This document shows, one piece after another, positions 1-30,633 of a stretch of 39,191 bases of DNA. The DNA comes from Gemmatimonadales bacterium. GTDB taxonomy: Bacteria > Gemmatimonadota > Gemmatimonadetes > Gemmatimonadales > GWC2-71-9. The stretch covers positions 1 through 39,191 of the forward strand of contig DATMZX010000331.1 in the NCBI GenBank assembly GCA_035573235.1, read 5' to 3'. The notes under the pieces were generated by a model that was not told where the DNA came from, did no database searches, and was given only the letters and a program-made list of their open reading frames with translations. How positions within the stretch are numbered: position 1 is the stretch's first letter; every line of letters begins with the position of its first letter. A program made the translations under genes and the position numbers.

Positions 1-569
1 TCGCCGATGACCTGTCGGCAGGCTTTCATCTATTACGCGCGCCCACCGTGGCGTATGGCGTCAATACCGCGATCAAGCGACCCTACCCCGGCAATGCCAC
101 GGTTCGCCGCAAAACCCTGCACCGCTGGATGAACGACCTGCTCGGCTCCTGGGAGCAGTGCGGCGTGGACACTTTCATTATTCTTACCGCACACGGCCAC
201 GATCCCCATCAAGAGGCGCTCTCCACGCTGCGCACGCGACGGGCTCGTGTATTCACGGTCGACATCTTTGCGCTCGACTTCACCGGCTATCTCGAGGACC
301 CCACGGGTCCCGTGCACGGCGGCGAGCTCGACACTTCCTTGATGCTCCATCTGGCCCCGGAGCTCGTCCGGATGGAGCTGGCCCAGGATTACCCGCTCAC
401 CCAGCGGCAGGTGGCTCGCTACCACCGCAGGGCCGCAGCCTCCGTCCCTGCTCTTTCCCCGGGTTCCGTGGGGCGCCCCACCATTGCCTCAGCCGAAAAG
501 GGCGCGCGCCTGTATAAGATGATTCATGACCGTATCGCGACGCGAGTTTTGGGAGCCGTAGCCGCATGA
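1..569 (+). CDS. creatininase-family amidohydrolase, 5'-truncated by the window edge
   Basis: The reading frame is open from nt 3 with no stop before the listed ORF at 48..569. Motifs match the creatininase fold from memory (FIILTAHGHDPH and VHGGELDTSLMLHLAPELV, resembling H-x-GE-x-ETS). The stop overlaps the next start as ATGA at 566-569. Confidence 0.75.
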   Translation, partial: ADDLSAGFHLLRAPTVAYGVNTAIKRPYPGNATVRRKTLHRWMNDLLGSWEQCGVDTFIILTAHGHDPHQEALSTLRTRRARVFTVDIFALDFTGYLEDPTGPVHGGELDTSLMLHLAPELVRMELAQDYPLTQRQVARYHRRAAASVPALSPGSVGRPTIASAEKGARLYKMIHDRIATRVLGAVAA

Positions 570-1249
570 TTACATGCCTGCTCACGCTGGCGCTGGTTCA
601 AGGGGTCCCCCGTGGCGCCTCGGGGACCGCCATCGACGAAGGGGTGCTGGTCGTGCGCATCGACACCGCCGAGGTGGCGCGCGAGTCGTTCCGCCTGAGC
701 CAGGGTCGCCTGTCGCGCGGCGGCGAGGGCTGGGTACTCGCCACGACGATTCGCTACGATCGCGCGCGGCCGGTCATCGTGCTCTCGCCGATTCTCGAAG
801 TGAACAGCGATACGCTGCCCGCCACCCTGCAGTACGACGTGGCCGACCCGCGCCAGCCCGCGCGTGTGCTCGGCGAGCTGGGCCGAGGCCGGTTCACCGT
901 GCGCTACGTCGCCCGCGCCACCGAGCGGGCCCGGGAATTCCCTACAGGACAGCGCGCGGTCGTGCTCGACGATTCGGTCTTTGCCACCTACCTGTTCGCG
1001 GCATGGCTGGCTCGCAGCGAACCGTCCACGATCACGGCGATTTATCCGCGCTCGCTGCGGCATGAGACTGTCCAGGTCCAGGACCTGGGCGTGGAAGCGG
1101 CACCGCGGAATCCCGAGGTGAAGCTGCGTCACTTCAGCGTCACCGGAGGGGCCGAAGTTGTTCATCTGTGGCTCGATGCGGATGGCCGTCTGATGAGGGT
1201 GCACATTCCTTCCCGTCGCCTCACCGCCGAGCGCCTCGCAGGAAGCTGA
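566..1249 (+). CDS. hypothetical protein, probably exported
   Basis: A 227-aa ORF that is translationally coupled to the upstream gene (ATGA overlap). It has a hydrophobic N-terminus (MITCLLTLALVQG). I recognise no family. Confidence 0.6.
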   Translation: MITCLLTLALVQGVPRGASGTAIDEGVLVVRIDTAEVARESFRLSQGRLSRGGEGWVLATTIRYDRARPVIVLSPILEVNSDTLPATLQYDVADPRQPARVLGELGRGRFTVRYVARATERAREFPTGQRAVVLDDSVFATYLFAAWLARSEPSTITAIYPRSLRHETVQVQDLGVEAAPRNPEVKLRHFSVTGGAEVVHLWLDADGRLMRVHIPSRRLTAERLAGS

Positions 1250-1366
1250 CCTTGAAGTAGGCCCCCCCCGGGCTAGGTTCTCTGTCGCAGGCCGAAACCG
1301 CCTCGTCTACCTCAGCGTAAGGGGGGGCGCTTCCGACCTTACGACATATCTCTAATAAGGAAGACC

Positions 1367-2896
1367 ATGAAACACGTGTTGATCGTGGCAGGTCTGGTCA
1401 TGGGACCATCCCTGTCCACCATCGCTGCAGCCCAGCAACCCTCACAACCGACACAACCGACGCAACCGACGCAACCGACGACACAGCAGGTCGCGGGACT
1501 TTCGCTCGCCGACGCGATCGCCCTCGCCCGGGAAAAAAATCCGGCGTTCCGCCAGGTCCAAAACAACCGCGGCCCGGCGTCCTGGGGCGTCCGCAACGCC
1601 TACTCGTCGCTGTTGTTGCCGACGTTCACCGTGGGCGGCGGGATGACCTACACGGGGCCGGGCTCGCAGACATTCCTCACATCGAGCTTCACGCAGACCA
1701 CGTCGACGGTGTCGTCGTTCTACGATCTGAATCTCTCCTGGCAGTTGTCGGGAACCACGCTCTCGCAGCCCGGCCTCGCCAAGGCGCAGCAGCGCGCGGT
1801 GGACGCCGACATCTCCGGCGCCGAGAACTTTCTCATCACGCAGGTGAAGCAACAGTACCTGACGATCCTGCAGGCGGACGCGCAAGCGGAAGTCGCGCGG
1901 CAGACCCTGCAGCGCAATGAGGAGTTCCTCAAGCTCGCAGAGGCGCGTCAGGGCGTCGGGCAGGCCACGTTGATCGACGTGCGCTCGGCGCAGGTCGCGC
2001 GCGGTCAGGCCGAGGTCGCGCTGTTGCGCGCGCGCACGCTGGTCAGCGTCGAGAAGTTGCGCCTGTTCGAGCAGATGGGGGTCGCGTCGCCGGTCGACGT
2101 CGCGAACGTGCGGCTGACCGACACGTTCACCGTGCAGGAGCCGACGTGGCAGCTGAGCGAGCTGCTGACGATGGCGGAGCAGCAGAACCCGGCGCTCAAG
2201 GCGTTGCGCGCGCGCGAAGGCGCCGCGGCGTGGAACAAGCGCGCGGTCGCGTCCGCCTACGGGCCGTCGCTCTCGGTGTCCGCCGGCTGGTCGGGGTTCA
2301 CGCAGCAGTTCACCGACGTCGATCCGATCATCTTCAACGGCCAGCAGGCGTCGGCGGCCCAGCTGCAGGAATGTCAGGACAACAACGTCATCCGCCAGAA
2401 TTCTGGCTTGCCGCCCAACAGCTGCGCCGGATTCGTCTGGGGTGCTGGCGACGAGCAGCGGATCCGCGATGCGAATTCCGTCTTCCCGTTCGAGTTCACG
2501 CAGCAGCCGTTCCAGGCGCGGCTCACCGTGTCGCTGCCGGTGTTCACGAACTTCGGCCAGCAGCTGCGGGTCTCGGAGGCGCGGGCGCAGCTCAGCGATG
2601 CCGAGGAGCAGGTGCGCGCGCGCGGCCTCGCGGTGCAGACCGACGTGAGCCAGGCGTACCTCACGCTCCAGACGTCGTTTCGCGCCGTCGGACTGCAGGA
2701 CACGAACCGCACCGCCGGCCGCGAGCAGCTCCAGCTGGCGACGGAGCGCTATCGCGTCGGGTCGGGGACGTTCTTCGACCTGCTCGACGCCCAGATCCAA
2801 GCGCTGCGCGCCGAGAGCGACTACGTGAATGCGACCTACGATTATCACAAGGCCGTGGCCGCGCTCGAAGCGGCGGTCGGCCGTAGCCTGCGTTAA
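1367..2896 (+). CDS. TolC-family outer-membrane efflux protein
   Basis: 509 aa with a signal peptide ending in AAAQQ. It shows the typical TolC N-terminus (LSLADAIALAREKNP) and a duplicated coiled-coil architecture (...AEVALLRAR..., ...YRVGSGTFFDLLDAQ...). An AAGGAAG RBS lies 7 nt upstream of the ATG. Confidence 0.9.
   Translation: MKHVLIVAGLVMGPSLSTIAAAQQPSQPTQPTQPTQPTTQQVAGLSLADAIALAREKNPAFRQVQNNRGPASWGVRNAYSSLLLPTFTVGGGMTYTGPGSQTFLTSSFTQTTSTVSSFYDLNLSWQLSGTTLSQPGLAKAQQRAVDADISGAENFLITQVKQQYLTILQADAQAEVARQTLQRNEEFLKLAEARQGVGQATLIDVRSAQVARGQAEVALLRARTLVSVEKLRLFEQMGVASPVDVANVRLTDTFTVQEPTWQLSELLTMAEQQNPALKALRAREGAAAWNKRAVASAYGPSLSVSAGWSGFTQQFTDVDPIIFNGQQASAAQLQECQDNNVIRQNSGLPPNSCAGFVWGAGDEQRIRDANSVFPFEFTQQPFQARLTVSLPVFTNFGQQLRVSEARAQLSDAEEQVRARGLAVQTDVSQAYLTLQTSFRAVGLQDTNRTAGREQLQLATERYRVGSGTFFDLLDAQIQALRAESDYVNATYDYHKAVAALEAAVGRSLR
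1444..1479 (+). repeat. 9-bp tandem repeat (A/G)CAACCGAC x4 inside tolC, encoding (PTQ)n
   Basis: Read directly as acaaccgac acaaccgac gcaaccgac gcaaccgac. A degenerate fifth copy, gcaaccctc, sits at 1435-1443. The repeat translates to QPSQPTQPTQPTQPT immediately after the signal peptide. Confidence 0.9.
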
Positions 2897-2916
2897 CCGA
2901 GAGGAATCGAGTCGAC

Positions 2917-4241
2917 ATGTCCAAGCGAAACAAGGTGCTGCTGGGTGGTGGAGGCGTGGTGCTGCTCATCGTGCTGGTGATGGTCAGCACCAGCGCCAAG
3001 CGGGACAAAGGGACCGAGGTGCGGTTCGAGCAGGTCGGCCGCCGCGATCTCGTCGCCGCCGTCACCGCGAGCGGGAAAATCCAGCCCAAGAAGAAGGTCG
3101 ACATCAGCGCCGACATCACCGGCCGGATCACCCGGATCGCGGTGCGCGAGGGCGACCTCGTGCAGAAAGGGCAATTCCTGCTCCAGATCGATCCCACGAT
3201 CTACCAGGCCAACAAACAGCGCGCGACCGCCATGATGTCGTCGGCGGAGGCGAGCGCGGTGCAGGCGCGCGCCAACCGTGATCAGTCGCAGCGCAGCCTG
3301 CAGCGGACCAAGGAGCTGCGCGAGCAGAACCCCAACCTGGTATCGCAGGAGCAGCTCGAGCAGGCCCAGACCGCGTTCGAGATCGCCGACGCGAACTTCA
3401 CCGCGGCGAGTCACGGGGTGGAGCAGGCGCGCGCCGGCTTGCAGGAGGCCAACGACCAGCTGTCGAAGACGCATCTCGTCGCGCCGATGGCCGGACGCGT
3501 GACGCGTCTCGCCGTCGAAGAGGGCGAAGTCGCCGTCCCTGGCACGTTCTCGCGCGAGACCGGCCTGCTGCTCACGATCTCGGACCTCTCGGTGATTCAG
3601 ACGACCGTGAACGTGGACGAGACCGACGTCGTGCGCGTCAACATCGGCGATTCGGTGGAAGTCACGATCGACGCGTTCCCCGACACCACGTTCGTGGGCC
3701 GGGTGACGAAAGTCTCCAACAGCGCGATCCTGACCGCGGCGTCGCAGGTGGGCGGCCAGAACGACCGCGCCGTCGACTACGAGGTCGAGATCACGCTGTC
3801 CAATCCGCCCACCGAAGTTCGCCCCGATTTGTCGGCGACGGCGCGGATCGTCACGGATACCCGCAAGCAGGCGCTCGCGATACCGATCATCGCGCTCACC
3901 GTGCGCGAAAACACTCCGGTCTCGACGGAGCAGAAACCGGCCCGTGGCAACGCGGCGAACGCCGCCCCCGCCCCCGCCCCTCCGCCGGCAGCCGGTGACA
4001 CGAGCAAGCACGGCGCCGGGCCGAAGAAAGAGACCGAGGGCGTGTTCCTGGTGCGCAACGGCGTCGCGACGTTCCATCCGGTGAAGGTGGGGATCGCGGG
4101 TGAGGAGCACTTCGAGGTCGTCGAGGGCGTGCAGCTGGGCGACACGATCGTCGCCGGCCCCTACCAGGCCATTCGCGACCTGAAGGAAGGCGCGCACGTC
4201 CGGCCGAGCCGCGAGTCCAGCGACACGACGCGGCGCCGCTC

Positions 4242-4245
<4 letters not shown>
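2917..4245 (+). CDS. periplasmic adaptor (membrane fusion protein), MacA/HlyD family
   Basis: 442 aa with an N-terminal TM anchor ([10 protein letters not shown]). It has a lipoyl/hairpin signature ([26 protein letters not shown] ... [19 protein letters not shown]), a coiled-coil hairpin and a C-terminal beta-barrel. A GAGAGGA RBS is present. Confidence 0.9.
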
Positions 4246-4972
<727 letters not shown>

Positions 4973-4973
<1 letters not shown>

Positions 4974-6211
4974 TGCCGTTTTACGAGGCGATGCGGCTCG
5001 CGCTGCAGACGATCCGCTCGCAGAAGCTGAAGAGCGGGTTCTCGCTGCTCGGGGTCTTCATTGGCGTGGCGTCGCTGATCGGCGCGTGGTCGATCGTGAA
5101 CGGCGTCAACCGCTACATGACCGAGCGGTTCGCCCAGACACTCTACGGCGTGAACACGTTCCAGCTGCGGCGCCGCCCCATGTTTACACCCAACGTGCCC
5201 GACTCGGTCTGGCGCGCCTGGGCGCGGCGTCCCCGCATTCGGTTCAGCGACGCCGAGGCGATCCAGGCGTCACTCACCGTCCCCGTCGTCACGGCGTGGC
5301 AATCGAGCGACAACGTCAGCGTGGGCTACGGCAACAAGGAAGCGCGCGACATCGAGCTCAACACGGCGAGCGAGCGCTACTTCGACATCAAGAATCTCAA
5401 GATCTCCTTGGGCCGGCCGTTCACCGGCGAAGAAAACCGCTCCGGGACGCCGGTCGTGGTGCTCGGGTACGCGGTGGCGCAGCGCCTGTTCTCCGATCGC
5501 ACGCCGCTCGGCAAGTCGGTCAAGATCGGCGGGATTCCGTATCGCGTCATCGGCGTCGTGGACAAGCAGGGCAGCATTCTCGGCTTCCCGCTCGACCGCT
5601 TCGTCGTCGTGCCGGCGTTATCCCCCGCGCAGAACCTCGTGAACCCGCCGGGCATCCTCGACGCCTTTCTGATCAAGGCGCACTCCGACATCGAGATGCG
5701 TGAAGCGATGTCGCAAGCCGAGGGCATCATGCGCAGTCGCCGGCACCTGCGGCCGCAGCAGGACAACAACTTCGTGCTCGAGACCTCCGAGGGCGTGCAG
5801 CGCTTCTGGGCCGGCATCAGCCGGATTCTGATGATCGTGTTGCCAGGGGTCGTCGTGGTGTCGCTCGTCATCGGCGGCATCGTGATCATGAACATCATGC
5901 TGATGGCCGTGGCCGAGCGGACCCGCGAGATCGGGCTGCGGAAATCCCTGGGCGCGCGTCGCCGCGACGTGCTGCGCCAGTTCCTCGCGGAGTCGACCTG
6001 CATCGCCGCCGTCGGCGCGACCTTCGGCATCGCCGCGGGCATCGTGTTGACGCTCGGGATCGACAAGCTCTCCCCGCTCCCGGCCAGCGTGTCGCCCATG
6101 TCGATCATCCTCGGCGTGGTCATGGGCGCGGGCGTCGGCGTCGTCGCCGGGGTGTATCCCGCCAGCCGGGCCGCGAAGCTCGACCCGATCACCGCGCTGC
6201 GACAGGAGTAG
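4973..6211 (+). CDS. MacB/FtsX-type ABC permease, class A, copy 1
   Basis: 412 aa. It has TM1 (LKSGFSLLGVFIGVASLI), a periplasmic domain of roughly 220 aa, and a C-terminal FtsX three-TM bundle with the MacB coupling motif AERTREIGLRKSLGA. The C-terminus is LDPITALRQE. The GTG start overlaps the previous TAG by 1 nt. Confidence 0.9.
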
Positions 6212-6214
6212 CGT

Positions 6215-7444
6215 ATGACCCAGCTGTTCGAAGGCGTCGGGATTGCGCTCACCTCGCTGCGCGCGCACAAGATGCGCGCGGCGCTCACGATTCTCGGTGT
6301 GGCGATCGGCGTGACGGTGGTGATGGTGATCGGCGCCATGATCAGCGGGTTCAACAAAGGCATCTCGGACATGCTCGCGTCGCTCGGGCCCAAGACGTTC
6401 TGGGTCGGCCGCTACTGGGGCGGGCAGAACGACGAGGACCCGGAAGATCCCAATCCGTGGCGGCGCCGCCCGCCGATCACCGTCGCCGAGGCGGACCAGC
6501 TGGCGCGGCTTCCCTCGATCGCGTTCGTCGTCATCGATGAGTGGACCAACGCCGACATCGAGTTCGAGGGCCGGCGCCTCGCGGCGACGTCGGTCCGCGG
6601 GCGCAATGCCGATTGGCCGAGCATCGAAGGCGGGCGGATCAACGCCGGCCGCTCGTTCACGCATCTCGAGGACGCGGCCAACGCGCACGTCGTCGTGGTC
6701 AACACCAAGCTGGCCGAAAACCTGTTCGGCAACCGGGACCCGATGAACCGGCGCATCAAGATCAGCGGGCTTCCCTACGACGTCGTCGGGATTTACGAGC
6801 CCCCGCCCCGCCTGTTCGGGGACGGCGATCAGCCGATGGTGATGATGCCGCACGGCACCTTCCAGAAGGACCTGCAGTACTGGCCGGGGTGGATGGACAT
6901 GTTCGTCGTCCCGGAGGACTCGGTGTCGCTCGAGCGCGCGATGGACGACGTGGTGATGTCGATGCGGTCGATGCGCGGGCTGCGGCCCGGTCAGAAGAAC
7001 AACTTCGACGCGGTCAGCCAGGACGTCTACGTCCAGGCGATCAACAGCTTCACCCTGGTCGCGCGCGTGCTGATGTTCGCGTTGTCGACGGTCGGCTTGA
7101 TGGTCGGCGGCATCGGCGTGGTCGCCATCATGATGATCTCGGTCACCGAGCGCACGCGCGAGATCGGGGTCCGCAAGGCACTGGGGGCGACGAAGCGCGA
7201 AGTGATGTGGCAGTTCCTGGTCGAGGCCGCGACGCTGACGCTCGTGGGCGGCGTCGTCGGGATGATCGTCGGCTGGGGCATCGCGATCCTGATGCACAAC
7301 TTCACGCCGGTCCCCGCCTACGTCCCGCTGGGATCGATCATCCTGGCGCTGAGCGCGGCGGCGGTCACGGGTCTGTTGTTCGGGATCTACCCCGCCAGCA
7401 AGGCGGCACGCCTGGATCCAGTCGAAGCGCTGCGGTACGAATGA
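6215..7444 (+). CDS. MacB/FtsX-type ABC permease, class B, copy 1
   Basis: 409 aa with the same architecture. The class-B N-terminus is FEGVGIALTSLRAHKMRAALTILGVAIGV, the coupling motif is TERTREIGVRKALGA and the C-terminus is LDPVEALRYE. Confidence 0.9.
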   Translation: MTQLFEGVGIALTSLRAHKMRAALTILGVAIGVTVVMVIGAMISGFNKGISDMLASLGPKTFWVGRYWGGQNDEDPEDPNPWRRRPPITVAEADQLARLPSIAFVVIDEWTNADIEFEGRRLAATSVRGRNADWPSIEGGRINAGRSFTHLEDAANAHVVVVNTKLAENLFGNRDPMNRRIKISGLPYDVVGIYEPPPRLFGDGDQPMVMMPHGTFQKDLQYWPGWMDMFVVPEDSVSLERAMDDVVMSMRSMRGLRPGQKNNFDAVSQDVYVQAINSFTLVARVLMFALSTVGLMVGGIGVVAIMMISVTERTREIGVRKALGATKREVMWQFLVEAATLTLVGGVVGMIVGWGIAILMHNFTPVPAYVPLGSIILALSAAAVTGLLFGIYPASKAARLDPVEALRYE

Positions 7445-8685
7445 AGTTCACCGAGGCGGTTCGCCTCGCGCTGCAAACCATTCGTTCCCAGAAGCTCAAA
7501 AGCGCCTTTTCGATCGTCGGCGTCTTTATCGGCGTCATGTTCCTGATCGCCGTCGTGTCGGTCGTGCAGGGCATGAATCGCTACATGACCGACAAATTCG
7601 CGGGCACGCTGCTGGGTGTGAACACCTTCCGGTTGCGGCAATTCCCCGACGTGCAGCTCGGCAACGTGACCGATTCGATGTGGCGCTCCTGGATGCGGCG
7701 GCCGCGGATTACGTATGACGACGCGCAGGCGGTGAGCCGTGGGATGAGCGTCCCCGTGGTGACGGCGTGGGAATCGAACACCCGCGGCAAGCTGACCGCC
7801 GGCCGCCGGGAAGCCAAGGACGTGCAGATCACCGCCGCCACCGAGCTCTACTTCGAGATCCGCTCGTTCAACCTCTCGCGCGGCCGGGTGTTCACGACGC
7901 AGGAAGTCCAGGCGGGCGCCCCGGTGCTGGTGCTCGGCTACGAGCTCGCCGAGAAGCTGTTCGAGGGCCAGGACCCGATCGGCCGCGAGGTCAAGGTCTT
8001 CGACCTGCCGTATCGCGTGATCGGCGTGGTCGAGAAGCAGGGAAATCTGTTCGGGCTGTCGCTCGACAAGTTCGTGGTGGCGCCGGCGAACGCGCCGGTC
8101 AAGCGGTTCGTCAATCCGCCGCGCGTCGTCGACGCGCTCGCGGTCAAGGCCGCCACGCCGGAAGACATGCGACTCGCGATTTCGGAAGCGGAGGCCGTGA
8201 TGCGCAGCCGCCGCCATCTGCGCCCGCGCGAGGCCGACGACTTCGCGATGGAAACGGCGGACGAAGTGCTGGACTTCTGGGGCAAGATCAGCCGCGTGCT
8301 GTTCATGGCGCTGCCCGGCCTCGTCGCGATCTCGCTGGTGGTGGGCGGGATCGTGATCATGAACATCATGCTGATGGCGGTCGCCGAGCGCACGCGCGAG
8401 ATCGGCATTCGCAAGGCGCTGGGAGCCCGGCGGCGCGACATCCTGCGCCAATTCCTCGTGGAGTCCGTGACGCTGGCGACGGTCGGCGCGGCCGCGGGAG
8501 TCGGACTCGGCATCGGACTCGCCGCGCTGGTCGCGGCCTTCTCTCCCCTCCCCGCCGCGGTGGCGACCTGGTCGATCGTCGTCGGCGTACTGCTCGGCGC
8601 CGGGGTCGGCATTGCCGCGGGCGTCTATCCCGCCGCGCGCGCCGCCCGGCTCGATCCCATCGCGGCGCTGCGGCACGAGACATGA
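7441..8685 (+). CDS. MacB/FtsX-type ABC permease, class A, copy 2
   Basis: The internal start MKFTEAVRLALQTIRSQKLKS lies within listed ORF 6541..8685 and forms an ATGA overlap with the previous stop. It is collinear with copy A1, with motif AERTREIGIRKALGA and C-terminus LDPIAALRHET. Confidence 0.9.
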   Translation: MKFTEAVRLALQTIRSQKLKSAFSIVGVFIGVMFLIAVVSVVQGMNRYMTDKFAGTLLGVNTFRLRQFPDVQLGNVTDSMWRSWMRRPRITYDDAQAVSRGMSVPVVTAWESNTRGKLTAGRREAKDVQITAATELYFEIRSFNLSRGRVFTTQEVQAGAPVLVLGYELAEKLFEGQDPIGREVKVFDLPYRVIGVVEKQGNLFGLSLDKFVVAPANAPVKRFVNPPRVVDALAVKAATPEDMRLAISEAEAVMRSRRHLRPREADDFAMETADEVLDFWGKISRVLFMALPGLVAISLVVGGIVIMNIMLMAVAERTREIGIRKALGARRRDILRQFLVESVTLATVGAAAGVGLGIGLAALVAAFSPLPAAVATWSIVVGVLLGAGVGIAAGVYPAARAARLDPIAALRHET

Positions 8686-9917
8686 CCGGCGCCTTCGAGG
8701 GCGTGAGCATCGCGCTCGAGTCGCTGCGCAGCAACAAAGCGCGCGCGGCGCTCACCATTCTCGGCGTCGCGATCGGCGTCGTCGTGGTGATGGTGATCGC
8801 GGCGATGATCAGCGGCATCAATCGCAGCGTCTCCAACATCTTCGAGTCGATCGCGCCGCGCACCTTTCTCGTGTGGCGCTGGTTCCAGGCCGGTGTCAAC
8901 GTCTCCGATGGCTCGGACGAGTCGAGCCCGTGGCGGCGCAATCCCGCCATCAGCGACGCCGAGGCCGACCGCGTCGCGACGCTGCCGTCCGTGCGGTTCG
9001 TGACCCGGCGCGAAGAAACCCAGGCCACGGTGGAGTTCGGCGATGTGCGGCTCGAGTCGGTGAACGTGGCGGGACTCTCGGCGCAGTGGGTGGAGGTGAA
9101 CGGCGGCGACGTGTATCCGGGGCGGACCTTCTCGCGACTCGAGGACATGGCGAACAGCCCGGTGGCCGTGATCAACCGCAAGCTCGAGGACCAGCTGTTC
9201 CGCGGACGCGACCCGATCGGGCAGACGATCCACATCGCGGGATCTCCGTTCACCGTGATCGGCGTGTACACGCCGCCGCCCAGCCTGTTTTCGGGAAGCG
9301 CCCCGCCGTTCGTCGGCCTGCCGCACGGCGTGTTCGTCAAGCACATCCCCTACATGAAGGGCTGGATGCGCCTCGCGATCGCGCCCGCCACCGGATACAC
9401 GCAGCAGGAGTCGATGGACGAGGTCGTGGCGACGCTGCGCTCGATGCGCGGACTCAAACCCGGCCAGGAGAACAGCTTCTCCATCGTGACGCAGGACAAG
9501 CTGCTCGACTCGTGGAATCAGGTCACCGGCATGTTCTTCCTCGTCATGCTCGTGCTGTCGTCGATCGGCCTGATGGTGGGCGGCGTCGGCGTCGTCGCGA
9601 TCATGATGATTTCCGTCACCGAGCGCACGCGCGAGATCGGGGTCCGCAAGGCGCTCGGCGCGACCCGCCGCGCGATCCTGTGGCAATTCCTGGTGGAAGC
9701 GTCGACCCTCACGCTGGTGGGCGGCGCGGTCGGGATGCTCGTCGGCGGCTTGCTCGCGTTCGCGATCTCGCGGCTGACGCCGATTCCCGCGAACGTGCCG
9801 CTGTGGTCGATCGTGGCGGCGCTGGGAGCGTCGGCCCTCACGGGCGTGGGCTTCGGCCTGTATCCGGCAAGCCGGGCCGCGCGGCTCGACCCTGTAGAGG
9901 CTCTCAGATACGAATAG
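8682..9917 (+). CDS. MacB/FtsX-type ABC permease, class B, copy 2
   Basis: The internal start MTGAFEGVSIALESLRSNKARAALTILGVAIGV lies within listed ORF 7767..9917 and forms an ATGA overlap. It is collinear with B1, with motif TERTREIGVRKALGA and C-terminus LDPVEALRYE. Confidence 0.9.
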   Translation: MTGAFEGVSIALESLRSNKARAALTILGVAIGVVVVMVIAAMISGINRSVSNIFESIAPRTFLVWRWFQAGVNVSDGSDESSPWRRNPAISDAEADRVATLPSVRFVTRREETQATVEFGDVRLESVNVAGLSAQWVEVNGGDVYPGRTFSRLEDMANSPVAVINRKLEDQLFRGRDPIGQTIHIAGSPFTVIGVYTPPPSLFSGSAPPFVGLPHGVFVKHIPYMKGWMRLAIAPATGYTQQESMDEVVATLRSMRGLKPGQENSFSIVTQDKLLDSWNQVTGMFFLVMLVLSSIGLMVGGVGVVAIMMISVTERTREIGVRKALGATRRAILWQFLVEASTLTLVGGAVGMLVGGLLAFAISRLTPIPANVPLWSIVAALGASALTGVGFGLYPASRAARLDPVEALRYE

Positions 9918-9926
9918 CTTTCCGTA

Positions 9927-11171
9927 GTGCACCCCTTCGAAGCGGTCCGCCTCGCGCTCCAGACCGTCTGGAGCCATAAGCTCCGCTCCTTCTTCACCCT
10001 GCTGGGCATCATCGTCTCCGTCGCCTTCCTCGTGGCGGTCGTCGCGGTCATTCAAGGGATGAACGCGTACGTGCGCGAGCGGCTCGCCGGCGCCATCGTC
10101 GGGATCAACGCGTTCCAGATTCGCCGCGACCCGATCCAGGTCGGCTTCATCGACGACGAGCAGTGGAAGGAAATCCAGCGCCGCCCGATCATCGCCCCGG
10201 AAGACGTCGATTTCATCGAGCGGGCGGTGCCCAACGCGGAGGCCGTCGCGCTGCAATCGGGATGGCCGACGCCGATGGCCGACGTGCAGTGGCGCAATCG
10301 CACCACGGGGGACGTGTTCATCTTCGGCGTGACCGCACCGTTCGTCGTGGTGCAGGACTACAAGTTCGCCGCCGGCGAGCCGCTCACCGACGTCGATTTG
10401 CAGCAGCGCCGTTACGTCGCGGTGCTGGGCTTCGACGTCGCGGAGAAGCTGTTCGGCAACGCCGCGGCCGCGGTCAACCGGATGATCCGGGTGCGCGGGA
10501 TGCAGCTGCTCGTGAAAGGCGTGATCGCCCGGAAGGGCACCGTGCTGGGGCAGTCCTGGGACGGGTTCGTGATGCTGCCGCTGAGCACGTTCGAGTCGAT
10601 GTACGGCCGGCGCCAGACGATGGTGATCTCGGTGAAGATGCCGACCGCGGAGGCCGTCGCGCCCGCGATGCTGCGCGTCGAGGAGGCGATGCGCATCGCG
10701 CACCGGCTGCGGCCCGGGACGGACAACGATTTCACGATCGACACGGGGGAAGGCCTGATCGCATTCTGGGGCAAGCTCACGAAGGTGATCTTCACCGTCG
10801 TGCCCGCCGTGGTGGTGATCGGCATCGTGGTCGGCGGGATCGTGATCATGAACATCATGCTGATGAGCGTCACCGAGCGTACGCGCGAGATCGGCATCCG
10901 CAAGGCGCTCGGCGCCTCGCGCCGCGACATCCGGCGCCAGTTCTTTGCCGAGGCGCTGACGCTGTCGGTGCTCGGCGGCATCGCGGGCCTGCTCGTGGGG
11001 TTCGCGCTGTCGGTGCTGGTGCAGGCCATTTCCCCGCTGCCGGCGCGCGTGACGACGTGGTCCATCGGCACCGCGCTCATGCTCGGCATCATCGTGGGAA
11101 TCACGTTCGGCGTCTTCCCCGCCGTGCGCGCCTCGCGGCTCGATCCGATCGAAGCGCTGCGCCAGGAATAG
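9927..11171 (+). CDS. MacB/FtsX-type ABC permease, class A, copy 3 (most diverged)
   Basis: 414 aa with a GTG start. The N-terminus is FEAVRLALQTVWSHKLRSFFTLLGI, the motif is TERTREIGIRKALGA and the C-terminus is LDPIEALRQE. The periplasmic domain is clearly more diverged than those of A1 and A2. Confidence 0.9.
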   Translation: MHPFEAVRLALQTVWSHKLRSFFTLLGIIVSVAFLVAVVAVIQGMNAYVRERLAGAIVGINAFQIRRDPIQVGFIDDEQWKEIQRRPIIAPEDVDFIERAVPNAEAVALQSGWPTPMADVQWRNRTTGDVFIFGVTAPFVVVQDYKFAAGEPLTDVDLQQRRYVAVLGFDVAEKLFGNAAAAVNRMIRVRGMQLLVKGVIARKGTVLGQSWDGFVMLPLSTFESMYGRRQTMVISVKMPTAEAVAPAMLRVEEAMRIAHRLRPGTDNDFTIDTGEGLIAFWGKLTKVIFTVVPAVVVIGIVVGGIVIMNIMLMSVTERTREIGIRKALGASRRDIRRQFFAEALTLSVLGGIAGLLVGFALSVLVQAISPLPARVTTWSIGTALMLGIIVGITFGVFPAVRASRLDPIEALRQE

Positions 11172-12416
11172 ATGAAGCTCCACTCGGTCCGCGAGGGCTG
11201 GCGCATCGCCCTCGAGCAGCTGCGCGCCAACAAGCTGCGCTCGGCGCTCACGGTGCTGGGTGTGGTGATCGGGATTGCCACGGTGATGGCGATGGCCTCG
11301 ATCGTCGCCGGATTCCGCGAGCAGATCGTCAACACGCTCGAAGTCGTGGGCCCCACGACGTTCCGCGTGCTCCGCTATTTCTCGACGACCGGGGTGAATC
11401 CGGACGCCGTGCCGCGCGAAGTGCGGATGCGTCCGAAGCTGATCCCGCAGGACGCCGAGGCGATCGCGCGCCTGCCGGAGATCCATTACGCGGCGATCTG
11501 GACCCAGGTGTTTCAGCGCTTCGAGTATTCCGGCAATCGCACCCGCGTGCTGGGCGTGTTCGGCGCCGACGACCGGTTCATGGAGATCCTGGGCGGCGGC
11601 ATCGCCAGCGGCCGATCGTTCACGACGTCCGAGCTGCGCGGCGGTGATCCGGTCGTCATCGTCGAGCAGCGCACGGTCGACCGGTTGTTCGGCGCGATCA
11701 ATCCACTCGGGCACATCGTCCGCATCGGCGGCCACCCGTTCAAGATTCTGGGCGTGTGGCAGCGCCCCACCAACATCTTCGAGGTCCCGGGCACGCCGGA
11801 GATCGCCGCCATCATGCCGTTCGAGAGCGCGCGGCGCGCGTTCTTCATCGACGAATGGAACGGTCTGATCATTCTCGTGAAGCCCAAGCCGGAGTACACC
11901 GTGAGCCGGGCCATGGACGCCGCGACGCTGACGCTGCGCCGCACCCGCGGCTTGCGCGCCGGCGATCCGAACGACTTCGACCTGCTCACCTCGGATCAGG
12001 TGCTGGGCATCTTCGACAGCCTGACGTTCGCGTTCTTCTTTGTGATGCTGGTGCTGTCGAGCATCGCGTTGATGGTGGGCGGCATCGGGGTCATGGCGAT
12101 CATGATGGTCTCGGTGACGAGCCGCACGCGCGAGATCGGGTTGCGCAAGGCGCTCGGCGCGACGCGCCGCGCGATCCTGTGGCAATTCCTCATCGAGGCC
12201 GCCACGCTGACGCTGCTTGGCGGCCTGATCGGGATCGTGATCGGGGTGGGCGTGGGCGAGGCCCTCAAGCGGCTGCTCGCCTTCAGCACCACGATTCCCG
12301 TCGTGCCGGCCGCGATCGCGACCGTTGCCTCGATTCTGGTCGGCCTCGTCTTCGGCATCGCGCCGGCGGCGCGCGCCGCCAAGCTCGATCCGATCGAAGC
12401 GTTGCGGTACGAGTAG
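11172..12416 (+). CDS. MacB/FtsX-type ABC permease, class B, copy 3 (most diverged)
   Basis: 414 aa. The ATG immediately follows the previous TAG. The N-terminus is ALEQLRANKLRSALTVLGVVIGI, the motif is TSRTREIGLRKALGA and the C-terminus is LDPIEALRYE. Confidence 0.9.
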   Translation: MKLHSVREGWRIALEQLRANKLRSALTVLGVVIGIATVMAMASIVAGFREQIVNTLEVVGPTTFRVLRYFSTTGVNPDAVPREVRMRPKLIPQDAEAIARLPEIHYAAIWTQVFQRFEYSGNRTRVLGVFGADDRFMEILGGGIASGRSFTTSELRGGDPVVIVEQRTVDRLFGAINPLGHIVRIGGHPFKILGVWQRPTNIFEVPGTPEIAAIMPFESARRAFFIDEWNGLIILVKPKPEYTVSRAMDAATLTLRRTRGLRAGDPNDFDLLTSDQVLGIFDSLTFAFFFVMLVLSSIALMVGGIGVMAIMMVSVTSRTREIGLRKALGATRRAILWQFLIEAATLTLLGGLIGIVIGVGVGEALKRLLAFSTTIPVVPAAIATVASILVGLVFGIAPAARAAKLDPIEALRYE

Positions 12417-12469
12417 CGCTACCCCAAGGGTCAATGGTCGCCCAGGACGGCAGCCCGTAGCCTAGGCGC

Positions 12470-13813
12470 ATGCTCGCACTCGCTGCTGTGGCCATTCTCG
12501 CGCAGGCCGTCGCCGTCCCGCCGAATCTGATTCTTCCCAACTACGACCGCTTGCCGATCGGTCAACGCGAGGGCATCGAGGCCGGCGCCTTCCTGGCGCG
12601 CACCAACGATGCCGGGGCCAACTGGTACAATCCCGCGGGACTCGCCAAGAGCCAGAAAACGGCGCTGAACGCCAGCGCGACCGCCTACGAGTGGACCAGC
12701 ATGTCGCTCGAAGGCTTCGGCGCCAGCGAAGGGCGATCGCGCATCAACACGATCGGGACCCTGCTCAGCGTCGCGATCGGCGAAGGGACGATCAAATCCG
12801 ATCGCTGGCGGCTGGGATTCTCGATCACGAATCCGATCGTGTGGCGGCCGAGCAGCATCGACTTCGCGTTCTCGCCGGCCGCGAACGAGACGTTCGCGTA
12901 CGCCTCGCTCGTCGACTTCAACACGATGATTCCCGGGATCGCGATCGCCTATGCGCCCGGCGGGGTGAGCGCGGGACGATTCCGGGTCGGCGCCGGTCTG
13001 GGGATGGCGATCACCTCGCTCACGCAGTCGCAGAGCGTCTCGATCCGCTCCACGACGGGGACGAGCGCGAGCGTGACGGAGCGGAGCTTCTCCGCCGAAG
13101 GCTCGACGTGGCAGCTGCAGCCCACGGGCGGGTTCCAGTGGGATGCCTCGCCGCGCGTCATCGTCGGGGCGCGCGTGGTCGCGCCCGGCCTCCGCATTCT
13201 CGGCTCGAGCCGTATGACGCTCGAGACGTCACAGTTCCAGTCTCCCACCTCGACCGACCTCGTGTTTCGCGACGAGGGAGCCACGTTCGATTACAAGCGT
13301 CCGCTCGAAGCGGCGACCGGCGTGGCGTATCACGCGACGGCCTTCGAGGTGGAAGTCGACGTGCATTACTACGGCACCATCGACACCTACTCCCTCTACA
13401 AGAGCGAGCTCCCCGGCATCTTGACCGTGGTGGACAGCAGCGGCACGCCCACGGTCACCAACCCCGCGTTCGTGCCCACCGCCAACAGCGCGCGCGCGGT
13501 CACGAACGTTGCCGCGGGCGGGAGTTACCGGCTGACCAACGCGCTCCGCGTCCACGCCGGGTTCGCCAGCGACTTCTCCCCGGTGGATGACCAGGCACTG
13601 TCGGTATTCCGGAAGGTGGACTTGTCGCGCTTCACGACCGGGCTTTCACTCACCGGGCAGCGGCTCTCGGGCTCGCTCGGGCTGGGGTATTCATCCGGAA
13701 GCGGCACGCGGGAAACGCTCGGAAATTCCGGGGGCGGTCAGCCGACCGCGACGCAGTTCAAAGTGCGCACGTTCAACCTGCTGTTCGCCTTCTCGTACGG
13801 CTTCGGCTCCTAG
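12470..13813 (+). CDS. outer-membrane beta-barrel protein, tentatively FadL/TodX-like
   Basis: 447 aa with a short signal peptide (MLALAAVAILAQAVA). It carries an NPAGL motif (WYNPAGLAK), which I associate with the hatch region of FadL/TodX channels. Amphipathic beta-strands alternate to the C-terminus (FAFSYGFGS). It lies 53 nt downstream of the last permease. Confidence 0.7.
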   Translation: MLALAAVAILAQAVAVPPNLILPNYDRLPIGQREGIEAGAFLARTNDAGANWYNPAGLAKSQKTALNASATAYEWTSMSLEGFGASEGRSRINTIGTLLSVAIGEGTIKSDRWRLGFSITNPIVWRPSSIDFAFSPAANETFAYASLVDFNTMIPGIAIAYAPGGVSAGRFRVGAGLGMAITSLTQSQSVSIRSTTGTSASVTERSFSAEGSTWQLQPTGGFQWDASPRVIVGARVVAPGLRILGSSRMTLETSQFQSPTSTDLVFRDEGATFDYKRPLEAATGVAYHATAFEVEVDVHYYGTIDTYSLYKSELPGILTVVDSSGTPTVTNPAFVPTANSARAVTNVAAGGSYRLTNALRVHAGFASDFSPVDDQALSVFRKVDLSRFTTGLSLTGQRLSGSLGLGYSSGSGTRETLGNSGGGQPTATQFKVRTFNLLFAFSYGFGS

Positions 13814-13816
13814 CCC

Positions 13817-14791
13817 TCAGAACGTCCAGCCCACCATCAACGTCACACCGAAGTCGTTCTTCGCCAGGCTGTCGGAAGGCGGCCGGCTGTCGAAGTTGTC
13901 GAACAAGACCAGCCCGGTATTGAAGTTCTTGATGAGCTCGCGGCTCAGGCTGACGCTCAGCTCGCTGCGGACTCGGCCGAAGTCGGTCAGACTGGGATAG
14001 AGGCTGAGCAGGCACTGGATATCGGTCTTGGGCGTATCGAGCTGGAAGTAATTGGCCTCCCCGCTCAGCAGCGCCTCGAGACCGAACGTCGCGCTGCTTC
14101 CAGTAAACCGCTCGTTGCTGAACGCGAGACCGCTCGCGATCAGGATTTCCGCACGGTTGGTCTGCCGCAGGAACCGGCCGCCGCCGGCCGTGACCAAACC
14201 ACGCCGCGCCAGATCGAGCTCTTCGTTCTGTTGGATTTCTCCCGAGGCCAGCAACAGCCACCGATTCCCCAGGAACCGGACCTGACTCAGGGACGCTGAA
14301 TTGCGGCTTGTGCCGTCGGCATCTTCCTGGTTCTGGAAGTAGAGGTTCGCGCGCAGCCGCGTCAGCCGGACGCGCGTGCGGTACTCCGCCTCGAAATCGG
14401 TGTTGAGACTGCGCAGACGGTTGGCGCGCTGGAACGTCAGGTTCAGGTTGAGGTGCCCATCGACGCGCGTGAGAAAGCTCTGTCCCAGCGGGTACATGCG
14501 GACGACGTTGGCGATGTCGAGCGTATCGACGAACGACGTCACCTCGACCACCATGCGGCCGGGGTCTCGCGCGGGCCGCAGCGTCCCGTAGTAGCGCCGT
14601 CCGGTATTGTCCTCGACCTCGAAATACCGGGGGCTCACGATCCGCGCGATCTTGTCCCACTTGATCGCCAGGGTGCCGACGTCGTCGGTCTTGTAGGTCA
14701 GGGCGCCGCGATCGAGTGTCTTGATCTCGCCGATGATGCGGTCGCCGTTCCGCATCAGCACCGTATCGACTTTTTGGGCGCAAAGGGGCAT
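13817..14791 (-). CDS. DUF481-family outer-membrane barrel protein; the true N-terminus probably lies upstream of the first canonical start
   Basis: It has a YdiY/DUF481-like N-terminal module (DTVLMRNGDRIIGEIKTLDRGALTYKTDDVGTLAIKWDKI) and a C-terminal barrel ending in VGWTF. In-frame sequence upstream of the ATG reads LVLRLLVVAAGLAAVAA-MPLCAQ, a signal peptide with no ATG, GTG or TTG. Confidence 0.75.
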   Translation of the reverse strand: MPLCAQKVDTVLMRNGDRIIGEIKTLDRGALTYKTDDVGTLAIKWDKIARIVSPRYFEVEDNTGRRYYGTLRPARDPGRMVVEVTSFVDTLDIANVVRMYPLGQSFLTRVDGHLNLNLTFQRANRLRSLNTDFEAEYRTRVRLTRLRANLYFQNQEDADGTSRNSASLSQVRFLGNRWLLLASGEIQQNEELDLARRGLVTAGGGRFLRQTNRAEILIASGLAFSNERFTGSSATFGLEALLSGEANYFQLDTPKTDIQCLLSLYPSLTDFGRVRSELSVSLSRELIKNFNTGLVLFDNFDSRPPSDSLAKNDFGVTLMVGWTF

Positions 14792-14823
14792 CGCCGCAAC
14801 GGCGGCGAGCCCCGCGGCGACGA

Positions 14824-16284
14824 CTAGTAGTCGGAGGACCAGCGCGGAATGGCCGTCGAGATGAAGAGGCGGGCCTGCGGAACCGTCAGATGGGTTGCGG
14901 GACCAGGCGCCGTCGCGGGATCAGACGGTGTGCTGTTGCGATGGATGTAGTCGTAGCGCGCGCCGAATCCCCAGCGCTTGAACGGGTACCAGCGCGCATC
15001 GAGCACGCCCTGGGCCAGATAGTGATCGTAGTCCGTGCCGTTCAGCGTGTGGATCCACGTGCCGTTGTATCCGGCGGTGAACAGGAACTTGCCGAGCCGG
15101 CCGACGGTCGCTTGCGCGCCCGCGCCCGCGCCCGGCCCGAAGTCGTAGTTGCGCCCCTCGCCGCTGATTTCGTAGTAGTCGGAACGCACGCCCGCGATCG
15201 CGACGCCGCGCAGGTAGACGTCGCTCACCAGCTGCCAGCGTTTGCCGAGCTGGAAGTTCGAGCTGACGCCGCCCGTGAAGCTCTGCGCGCCGTACTCATG
15301 CACGACCGAGTTGAAAGCGGTGTCCGTGGTCGGGAAGAAGTAATACTCGTAGTTCATCCGCACATTGGCGACGTGGGTCGCCGAGCCGCCGCCCGATCCC
15401 AGTCGCTTGCCCCAGATGTTTCCCTTCGCGGTGAGGATCTGCAGCTTCTGGCGGTCCTGCCCCAGCCCGAGCTCCGCGGTCACCTGAAACGTCGAGAACG
15501 GTTTCCCGATGAGGTCCTGCACCGGCCGTCCATAGAGCAGACGCCACGTGACGGTGAGATCGCGCTGCGGATCGCTCAGCACGTCGAACGAATTGCCCTT
15601 CGTGCCGATCACTCGCGTGCCGACATCGAGCGATGCCTGCGCCCACGCGGGCCGCCAGTCGGGCGGGTTTTGCGTGACGTCGTTGACCTTCCCGTCGAGC
15701 AAGCGGTTGAATTCGTTCCACGGGCTCGAGAAGAAGGCGCCGATTTCCCGCCACGTGCGCTCGGAGCCCGTCGCGCGATTGTCGAGCGTCAGGTTGGAGA
15801 GGCGCCACAGCATTTCGCCCAGCGCGATGCCGCCGAGCGAGGTGTTGATCATGTCGTTGGGCGCCTTGGGGTGCGTTTCCCCACAACATTCCCAGATGTA
15901 GGAGCCGGCGACCGCGCCGATCGACGACGCCCAGAAGTTGTAGCCGTTGGACCGATACGAGTTGAAGTAGTAGTTGCCGTGCATCGGGTGCGCGAACTGG
16001 TTCGTCTGGAAGTTGTTGTCGTCCCAGACCCACTTGCCGGTGATGTTGTCCCACCAGGACTCGGGAGTCACCTTCGCGAAGTCGGCGTCGCGGATGTAAT
16101 AGTTCACGGCCCACGGGATCCACCAGTTCACGTACAGCTCGGCCGTGCCACGCCAGAACTTTTTCGGGCGCGGCTCGCAGTCGGGGCAGGACGGCGACTT
16201 CGGAGGTTCGAGGCGCTGCGCGGCCGCCCCGGAAGCAAGGCACAGGGCGGCGCAGACGGAGATGGTGATCGAGAGCCGTCGCAT
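14824..16284 (-). CDS. DUF3943-like secreted or outer-membrane protein
   Basis: 486 aa with signal peptide MRRLSITISVCAALCLASGAAAQ. The core resembles DUF3943 from memory (WDDNNFQTNQFAHPMHGNYYFNSYRSNGYNFWASS...WECCGE...PNDMINTSLGGIALGE). The C-terminal half is rich in beta-strands. Confidence 0.75.
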   Translation of the reverse strand: MRRLSITISVCAALCLASGAAAQRLEPPKSPSCPDCEPRPKKFWRGTAELYVNWWIPWAVNYYIRDADFAKVTPESWWDNITGKWVWDDNNFQTNQFAHPMHGNYYFNSYRSNGYNFWASSIGAVAGSYIWECCGETHPKAPNDMINTSLGGIALGEMLWRLSNLTLDNRATGSERTWREIGAFFSSPWNEFNRLLDGKVNDVTQNPPDWRPAWAQASLDVGTRVIGTKGNSFDVLSDPQRDLTVTWRLLYGRPVQDLIGKPFSTFQVTAELGLGQDRQKLQILTAKGNIWGKRLGSGGGSATHVANVRMNYEYYFFPTTDTAFNSVVHEYGAQSFTGGVSSNFQLGKRWQLVSDVYLRGVAIAGVRSDYYEISGEGRNYDFGPGAGAGAQATVGRLGKFLFTAGYNGTWIHTLNGTDYDHYLAQGVLDARWYPFKRWGFGARYDYIHRNSTPSDPATAPGPATHLTVPQARLFISTAIPRWSSDY

Positions 16285-28017: not shown

Positions 28018-28380
28018 ATGGACCTCGTCGACCAGATCGTCGCCAACTTGTCCGTCGAGCCCGGTCAGGCCGAAAAGGGTATCGGCGCGATCCTGATTTC
28101 AATGCGCATGTCCGTCGACAAGGCAACATTCGAAAAGGTCCGCGCGGCCGTCCCGGCTCATGAGAGCTACATGGGTCGCGCCTTGATGAGCGGCGCGCGC
28201 ACCGGTGAGATGATCGGCGTCGCGGGGCCCGCCGCGCTGTCGGCCGGACTCTCCGCGGCCGGCTTTCGCAAAGAGGATCTGCCGCGGCTCGGCAGCATCG
28301 TCATGGAGCATCTGCGGCCCAGTCTCGGCAACGATGTGATCGAGCGCTTCCTCGCGGGAGCCCCCGTCCTCAGAGCTTGA
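28018..28380 (+). CDS. DUF2780-like hypothetical protein
   Basis: 120 aa. The N-terminus (DLVDQIVANLSVEPGQAEKGIGAIL) and overall length and pattern resemble DUF2780 as I recall it. The 3' end overlaps the convergent kinase gene by 11 nt. Confidence 0.6.
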   Translation: MDLVDQIVANLSVEPGQAEKGIGAILISMRMSVDKATFEKVRAAVPAHESYMGRALMSGARTGEMIGVAGPAALSAGLSAAGFRKEDLPRLGSIVMEHLRPSLGNDVIERFLAGAPVLRA

Positions 28381-30622: not shown

Positions 30623-30633
30623 GGAGCCAAAAG

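Follow-up and report, generated by a model that had tools for sequence, protein, structure and literature searches.

The locus and its nine genes

We analysed a 39,191-nt stretch of DNA from a soil Gemmatimonadales bacterium (contig DATMZX010000331.1; the whole stretch is called the window below), and describe here a putative tripartite efflux locus at positions 1367-12416 in which a duct, an adaptor and an ATPase gene are followed by six permease genes. Open reading frame (ORF) listing and translation yielded nine plus-strand genes with overlapping or near-zero junctions, in the order TolC-family duct, MacA-like adaptor, one stand-alone ABC ATPase and six permeases, which matches exactly the unbroken same-strand run and the junctions given in an earlier account drawn from the letters alone (the sequence-only reading). 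The duct and adaptor genes are separated by 20 nt, and from the adaptor gene onward the junctions are a GTGA overlap, a 1-nt TAGTG overlap, 3 nt, ATGA, ATGA, 9 nt and 0 nt. The G+C content of the window is 66-68 %, and a promoter/terminator scan of positions 1-14500 gave no signal above shuffled expectation.

The duct gene (1367-2896, +) encodes a 509-aa outer-membrane factor (OMF) of the TolC family with two Pfam OEP domains (PF02321, E=8e-50), in which a Sec-type signal peptide is followed by a Q/P/T-rich linker; its matches to the NCBIfam TolC and NodT subfamilies fall below their cut-offs. The adaptor (2917-4245, +; 442 aa) is a periplasmic protein of the MacA/YknX type with HlyD_D23, HlyD_3 and Biotin_lipoyl_2 matches, a transmembrane (TM) anchor at its N-terminus and, close to the C-terminus, an insert rich in Pro and Ala. 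It scores 152 bits against TIGR01730, above the cut-off of 95, while its MacA equivalog match (E=4e-37) stays below cut-off, and for an identical protein on metagenome contigs Beta-barrel_YknX and YknX_C are among the precomputed matches. The ATPase is a stand-alone nucleotide-binding domain (NBD) protein of 243 aa (4242-4973, +; ABC_tran E=1e-36) with intact Walker A (GPSGSGKST), Q-loop, signature (LSGGQRQR), Walker B (ILLADEPT) and H-loop (VTHE) motifs, and among the NCBIfam models it matches the MacB NBD (E=3e-80) and LolD (E=1e-70) best. No second ABC ATPase was seen, as judged from ABC_tran matches among the other ORFs scanned by Pfam across the 39-kb window.

The six permeases, all on the plus strand, are P1 (4973-6211, 412 aa), P2 (6215-7444, 409 aa), P3 (7441-8685, 414 aa), P4 (8682-9917, 411 aa), P5 (9927-11171, 414 aa) and P6 (11172-12416, 414 aa). 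Each has a MacB_PCD domain (E from 1e-30 to 1e-37) and an FtsX domain (E from 1e-20 to 1e-24). Comparison with five orthologous loci indicated purifying selection on all nine genes, with dN/dS of 0.05-0.27 overall, 0.16-0.27 for the duct and 0.05-0.18 for the six permeases, so that none of them is a pseudogene, in keeping with the earlier statement that no permease looks like one.

In structure searches P1 matched MacB over its full length (5lil, E=2e-48), and P2 matched both MacB (5gko, E=8e-49) and Spr0695 (5xu1, E=2e-48). Both classes of permease described below match MacB structures over their full length at E of about 1e-42 to 1e-49, and LolC/LolF at about 1e-4 to 1e-8. They are thus far closer to MacB than to LolC, LolF, DevC or FtsX, which places the locus with the MacB-subfamily tripartite pumps and not with the Lol systems. 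The features expected of a MacB-type (type VII ABC) system are all present, namely a four-TM permease with its periplasmic domain between TM1 and TM2, a coupling helix, catalytic NBD motifs of the MacB/LolD/FtsE type, and an adaptor and a duct encoded directly upstream.

The permeases alternate between two classes

From P1 to P6 the permeases are ordered A-B-A-B-A-B, class A being P1, P3 and P5 and class B being P2, P4 and P6. Identities within class A are 57.5, 37.7 and 42.8 %, those within class B are 56.0, 39.4 and 40.6 %, and those between the classes are 30-36 %. All six carry the coupling helix (E/S)RTREIG(L/V/I)RK(A/S)LGA, and alignment confirms its reported match to E. coli MacB (PDB 5nik_J), which reads ERTREIGIRMAVGA at this position; in P6 the helix begins SRTREIG, not ERTREIG. 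The terminal motifs proposed for each class hold less strictly: the quoted strings are present, but the C-terminus of P3 (LDPIAALRHET) and the diverged N-terminus of P6 (VREGWRIALEQLRANKLRSALTVLGVVIGI) depart from them.

To place these genes among their relatives, one genome per species was scanned, which gave 79 related loci, all from Gemmatimonadales or Gemmatimonadota metagenome-assembled genomes (MAGs), and every ORF of these loci was classified with hidden Markov models built from the window proteins. In a neighbor-joining tree of the 298 orthologous permeases, class A (155 sequences) and class B (143) are reciprocally monophyletic, in agreement with the identity matrix of the six window permeases, and the two alternating classes of the sequence-only reading therefore stand. 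After merging of frameshift fragments, none of the 79 loci contained two adjacent permease genes of one class (AA or BB). Because the two classes are reciprocally monophyletic and like is never followed by like, the alternation is not a matter of chance.

The array recurs with one to four pairs

Writing the duct, adaptor and ATPase genes as T, M and N, the 79 related loci read T-M-N-(AB)n, nine of them without the NBD gene. Forty-eight arrays were complete on both sides, and pair counts, again taken after fragments had been merged, were one pair in 5 genomes, two pairs in 28, three pairs in 14 and four pairs in 1. The numbers of A and B genes are equal across all 48, and neither class has been lost alone. 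The commonest state is two pairs, (pair I)(pair II) by best-hit orthology. The layout of three alternating pairs thus recurs, in 14 of the 48 complete arrays, but it is not unique, since the same locus holds from one to four pairs. The largest array that we saw, at 250-15301 of locus L021, reads T-M-N-ABAB-[inserted gene]-ABAB.

Some genes of the related loci are broken, each into a pair of overlapping ORF fragments. This is so for class-B genes at 11263-12497 and 13806-15036 of L054 and at 9767-11160 of L065, for the NBD gene of L044 (9259-9994) and for the duct gene of L026 (4089-5496); these could be either assembly frameshifts in the MAGs or incipient pseudogenes.

In about 50 genomes the locus is flanked upstream by a creatininase gene and a 227-aa ORF and downstream by genes for a PIG-L-family deacetylase, IscS and MnmA. 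This conserved chromosomal site argues that the loci are orthologous and that the number of pairs changed in place. Identical or near-identical copies of the locus are found on soil metagenome contigs. The 120 matches listed for P5 were all close Gemmatimonadales orthologues of 84-96 % identity, and about 8000 database proteins, mostly from soil metagenomes, scored at E<=1e-20 among the candidates scored; the P5 matches are labelled only as 'putative ABC transport system permease'. A tblastn search of P6 against the PLSDB plasmids returned only ordinary single-permease MacB-like genes of 30-34 % identity (Bacillus, Azospirillum and others).

The A-B pair as a unit of duplication

Each class splits in the same way in the neighbor-joining tree, into a pair-I clade (102 A and 93 B sequences) and a pair-II clade (53 A and 50 B). 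The pair-I clade holds P1 and P3 for class A, or P2 and P4 for class B, and the pair-II clade holds P5 or P6, so that the window contains pairs Ia (P1-P2), Ib (P3-P4) and II (P5-P6). The A and B trees mirror each other, from which it follows that the pair was duplicated as a unit, and twice. The split between pair I and pair II is older than the sampled radiation, and both lineages have been kept in most genomes. P5, of the older duplication, is 38-43 % identical to P1 and P3, and P6 is 39-41 % identical to P2 and P4. P3 and P4, at 57.5 % identity to P1 and 56 % to P2, appear as their younger duplicates, and on these comparisons the three-pair form of the window is the outcome of a younger duplication of pair I.

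The spacing of the genes points the same way. The median junction is 4 nt from A to B (interquartile range 1-18, n=142), which is tight, and 59 nt from B to the next A (n=79), which is looser. Three foreign genes have been inserted into arrays, and 3/3 are found after a B gene and before the following A gene; these insertions (L020 2481-3844, L021 8674-10001 and L037 7759-8612) comprise a CDP-alcohol-transferase-like membrane protein, a polytopic membrane protein and a minus-strand ORF. The mirrored trees, the equal numbers of A and B, the junctions and the insertions all favor the pairs of LolC/E style that the sequence-only reading had proposed as far as the pair being an evolutionary unit is concerned; that it is also a functional unit is probable, and the heterodimers themselves we infer.

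Class-discriminating residues lie in the N-helix/TM1 and TM2

We next defined a class-discriminating position as one that is at least 90 % conserved within each class yet different between them, across the 298 orthologues. Eight such positions were found, three in the N-helix/TM1 and five in TM2; the periplasmic domain, coupling helix, TM3/TM4 and C-terminal helix had none. Of the positions that both classes conserve, the N-helix/TM1 and TM2 account for only 18 out of 57, and the finding of 8/8 there has a hypergeometric p of ~3e-5. In MacB, TM1 and TM2 of both protomers make up a central four-helix bundle, and TM3 and TM4 pack outside it (PMC5985334). The class-discriminating side chains may face the partner protomer.

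Homodimeric MacBs read GGIGVMNIMLVS in TM2, which is a mosaic of B-type (G, V) and A-type (N, L) states. Class B has kept the G and the V and changed N to A and L to M, and class A has kept the N and the L and changed G to V and V to I. Each class has thus diverged from the mosaic at different, complementary positions, as expected if a two-fold interface had turned into an asymmetric A-B interface. At the same time, 12 of the 18 coupling-helix positions are invariant across both classes, and such a near-identical helix in A and B fits the docking of one homodimeric NBD on both. The periplasmic domains hold conserved positions that are each class's own (12 A-specific and 10 B-specific, common to all pair types), and these could be sites of class-specific contact, with the adaptor for instance.

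The pairs differ mostly in their periplasmic domains

Within a class, the periplasmic domains are 22-50 % identical and the TM core 53-70 %. Between pairs the periplasmic domains go down to 22-29 % identity, yet they are conserved among orthologues, and those of pair II have almost no class signal left. The earlier suggestion that specificity is set by diverged periplasmic domains is thus supported to the extent that these are the most diverged part of the proteins, and the step from there to distinct substrates is one that we would make only provisionally. Pair I and pair II also show fixed differences in TM1/TM2, at 10/25 positions in class A and 7/13 in class B. Two columns changed in both classes, 42 (V/I in pair I to I/V in pair II) and 297 (S/G to G/A), and could be a faint hint of pair-specific co-adaptation.

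Nine related loci have no ATPase gene in the operon

In nine related loci (L041, L048, L049, L050, L058, L061, L062, L081 and L085) the adaptor gene abuts the first class-A gene and there is no room for an NBD gene. The available flanks of these loci contained no ABC-ATPase-like ORF in 8/9 cases. As the permease tree places the nine in two groups apart from each other, the operon NBD must have been lost at least twice, and with no NBD in the operon the permeases there must use one encoded elsewhere. The sequence-only reading had named service by ATPase genes elsewhere as a finding that would speak against it; this is the situation in the nine relatives, and it was not observed in the genome of the window. 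It had also raised a puzzle of stoichiometry, which persists in that a single operon NBD faces six permeases and is softened by the nine relatives: the answer to how one ATPase could serve six permeases need not lie within the operon. By analogy with group II ECF transporters, the disappearance of the ATPase gene from the operon in some lineages would imply a shared energising module elsewhere.

Genomic surroundings

Three genes follow P6 at 12470-16284, encoding a 447-aa protein and, on the minus strand, a DUF481 protein and a DUF3943 protein. The 447-aa protein has no significant family match (a weak one to FadL/TodX, E=0.0014, is below cut-off) and no match to a PDB sequence. These genes occur only in the window's own species, that is, in the window and near-identical metagenome contigs, and at all other Gemmatimonadales loci PIG-L, IscS and MnmA come immediately after the pump. 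It seems that genes for putative outer-membrane proteins were recently inserted beside the pump. We considered the three genes as components of the pump system and rejected them, as no other species has them at the orthologous locus.

Upstream, the 227-aa ORF (566-1249, +) stands directly before the duct gene; it shows only a sub-threshold hint of DUF6134 and is conserved at 27-100 % identity in 55 related loci. Positions 28370-31108 (-) encode a Ser/Thr protein kinase of 912 aa that carries TPR repeats in its C-terminal part, and the rest of the window includes IscS, MnmA, DnaJ, CinA and a CDP-alcohol phosphatidyltransferase. Such housekeeping neighbors indicate a chromosomal context, and not a mobile element or a biosynthetic cluster.

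A proposed mechanism and its alternatives

Our preferred interpretation, to which we give a probability of roughly 0.6, is that the locus is a MacB-type operon whose permeases form A/B heterodimers, the three pairs being alternative modules that share the ATPase, the adaptor and the duct. The inner-membrane component would then probably be a LolCE-style A/B heterodimer and not a MacB homodimer. From the sequence patterns above we infer heterodimer formation, the sharing of partners among the pairs and a difference in substrates. In this proposal each A-B pair would form a heterodimer powered by a dimer of the stand-alone ATPase, and a MacA-like hexamer would join it to a TolC-like trimer to complete the pump. 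Following the 'bellows' model of MacB transport (PMC5985334), ATP-driven zipping of the TM1/TM2 bundle would close a cavity between two unlike periplasmic domains, and this closure would push the substrate into the adaptor channel. Substrates would be taken from the periplasm or the outer leaflet and then expelled. The pair was duplicated in tandem twice, in the old split of pair I and pair II and then in that of P1P2 and P3P4, and we propose that the cell can therefore build three alternative pumps. These would differ above all in the periplasmic domains around the substrate cavity and so cover a wider range of compounds. We are more tentative, with slightly less than even odds in mind, about the extended form of this idea, a cassette pump in which co-evolving pairs, one to four per genome and each with its own cavity, compete for one ATPase dimer, one adaptor hexamer and one duct.

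Several observations weigh against heterodimeric modules of this kind. The solved close relatives, MacB and Spr0695, are all homodimers. The changes that discriminate the classes are mostly conservative (V/G, I/V, N/A, L/M), and mirrored trees with adjacent genes would be equally expected of two co-regulated homodimers acting separately. One adaptor would have to dock three pairs of periplasmic domains that are only 22-50 % identical. The relatives without an operon NBD imply that the relation of NBD to permeases is flexible and not exclusive, and other ATPases may play a part in the genome of the window too. The three permease genes PG0682-0684 in one of the P. gingivalis operons taken up below imply that the wider family does not always keep to strict pairing.

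The first of these points leads directly to an alternative in which the operon encodes six MacB-like homodimers with a shared ATPase and the alternation is simply the duplication history of a two-gene block. Every permease does retain a full coupling helix and the complete TM architecture. However, such a history would not account for the equal numbers of A and B in the 48 complete arrays, where neither class was lost alone, nor for the tight A-to-B junctions, and the fixed differences between A and B are confined to TM1/TM2 of the bundle, where they are complementary with respect to homodimeric MacB; we think that six homodimers are quite unlikely. If heterodimers are formed, they need not respect the pairs: any A might combine with any B, giving up to nine heterodimers as a combinatorial library. 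The eight class-defining TM1/TM2 residues are alike in all three pairs, the TM core is 53-70 % identical within a class, and there is no obvious bar to cross-pairing. Against this, the members of a pair stay adjacent and translationally coupled, and there are pair-specific substitutions in TM1/TM2, including those in columns 42 and 297, although these are conservative and count for little. Free mixing therefore strikes us as unlikely, if somewhat less so than six homodimers.

It might also be that some pairs, such as the older pair II, borrow the operon ATPase for work outside the pump, in the manner of Lol, YbbAP or FtsEX. The MacB superfamily does have members that work outside tripartite pumps (PMC5985334), pair II is absent from the one-pair loci, and its periplasmic domains are nearly devoid of class signal. 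At the same time, every pair is part of one compact operon that starts with the duct, adaptor and NBD genes, all permeases resemble MacB far more than LolC/E, DevC or FtsX, and the conserved locus has no gene for a LolA-like or hydrolase partner, which leaves only a small chance for this alternative. The chance is very small indeed, in our judgement, that the pairs are redundant paralogues, functionally alike and kept for dosage or in decay. Such a situation would go well with the variation from one to four pairs between species and with the frameshifted B genes of some relatives (L054, L065), but it is hard to reconcile with dN/dS of 0.05-0.18 for all six permeases, with a pair-I/pair-II split that predates the sampled radiation and whose two lineages are mostly retained, and with periplasmic domains that are as little as 22-29 % identical and yet conserved among orthologues.

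If the heterodimer interpretation holds, the window and its 79 relatives represent a soil lineage, large and abundant, whose transporter is probably an obligate A/B heterodimer, and in which pump capacity seems to have been widened by duplicating the heterodimer and not the whole pump. This raises the questions of how pairing is enforced, how one adaptor serves several periplasmic domains and how one ATPase gene, or an ATPase encoded elsewhere, serves several pairs. The cassette pump, if that form of the idea is right, would be the first tripartite efflux system with a substrate range set by swapping the inner-membrane heterodimer, and a test bed for heterodimer pairing in type VII ABC transporters, for instance through the complementary TM2 changes V304/G301 and N307/A304. 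None of this is surprising in principle, and the value of the locus is rather that nature offers here an uncommonly clean case in which to study how these transporters pair and share their modules. There is also a practical side: surveys of the soil resistome score 'macB' as macrolide resistance, and thousands of such hits are likely to be Gemmatimonadales permease paralogues with no assigned substrate.

Relation to known systems

What is understood of MacB-type pumps comes almost wholly from enterobacterial homodimers whose NBD is fused to the permease. The MacAB-TolC systems (E. coli, 5nik; Aggregatibacter actinomycetemcomitans, 5lil; Acinetobacter baumannii, 5gko) share with the window the four-TM MacB_PCD permease, the coupling helix, the adaptor and the duct, and differ in that MacB is a homodimer with the NBD fused at its N-terminus and encoded by one permease gene, where the window has a separate NBD and three tandem pairs. 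Assignment to MacB proper (NF007826) was rejected accordingly, as the NBD is not fused as in the 648-aa polypeptide and the equivalog scores are 161-270 bits against a cut-off of 966. The pneumococcal Spr0693-0695 and Bacillus YknXYZ systems have, as here, separate NBD and permease genes and a MacA-like adaptor; they are Gram-positive, with a single homodimeric permease gene and no OMF.

LolCDE is like the window in having two paralogous type VII permease genes and one stand-alone ATPase; its asymmetric LolC/LolE heterodimer on LolD2 is the model that we propose for each A-B pair, and family reviews give LolCE as the heterodimeric example (PMC5985334, PMC8277102). Unlike the window, it has a single pair, lacks an adaptor and an OMF, and hands lipoproteins to LolA. 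We rejected membership both on scores (40-60 bits against TIGR02212, with a cut-off of 362, and partial matches at E from 1e-4 to 1e-8 to the LolC/LolE exception models) and on gene content, since an adaptor and an OMF are found in the same operon. DevBCA-HgdD was rejected as well, with E from 1e-4 to 1e-6 and ~20-27 bits against devC (TIGR01185, cut-off 290) and 73 bits against DevB (TIGR02971, cut-off 129), and model scores likewise led us to reject membership in FtsX.

The ADOP family (TIGR03434) is the second-best NCBIfam match for all six permeases (112-164 bits). It shares amplified arrays of MacB_PCD+FtsX permeases with the window, and differs in that the two halves are fused into proteins of ~800 aa; arrays with ten paralogues on Psychroflexus torquis GI-43 have few or no adjacent ATPases (PMC3914696). 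When matched to the ADOP halves, class B fell on the C-terminal half in 8/8 cases and class A split 4 to 4, so that A and B did not correspond cleanly to the N-half and the C-half. An ADOP assignment was rejected, considering that the window has separate genes for proteins of 409-414 aa, scores far below the cut-off of 622 and an ATPase in the operon.

The nearest parallels in gene organization are operons with adjacent permeases. In Treponema pallidum, tp0959-tp0972 encodes the permeases TP0962/TP0963, the NBD TP0964, the adaptor TP0965 and the OMFs TP0966-0969, and the TM component TP0962/TP0963 is called heterodimeric by the authors from modelling only (PMC8407342). The likeness to the window, in the adjacent permease pair, separate NBD and adaptor, is one of gene-level architecture, and in T. 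pallidum it is the duct that has been multiplied (four OMFs), unlike the permease pair here. Porphyromonas gingivalis, which belongs to the same FCB-group neighborhood of phyla as Gemmatimonadales, has operons that share a TolC-family protein, an adaptor, one ATPase and MacB-like permeases with the window, as compared by gene content. There are three permeases in PG0679-PG0685 and two each in PG1662-PG1667 and PG0280-PG0283 (PMC12094164), and not six as here. At the gene level the window therefore conforms to a paired-permease MacB-type operon as seen in TP0962-0965 and PG1662-1667.

We found no paper on tandem arrays of alternating permease pairs or on Gemmatimonadota MacB systems, the literature found consisting of resistome surveys, reviews in which LolCE is the only heterodimer, and the annotations in T. 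pallidum, P. gingivalis and P. torquis. The sequence-only reading, which knew of no characterised cassette-type pump, is borne out as far as this literature goes, but multi-permease operons had already been annotated in T. pallidum and P. gingivalis. What is new is the copy-number expansion of a paired-permease MacB-type pump, conserved in Gemmatimonadales; multi-permease operons as such were already on record.

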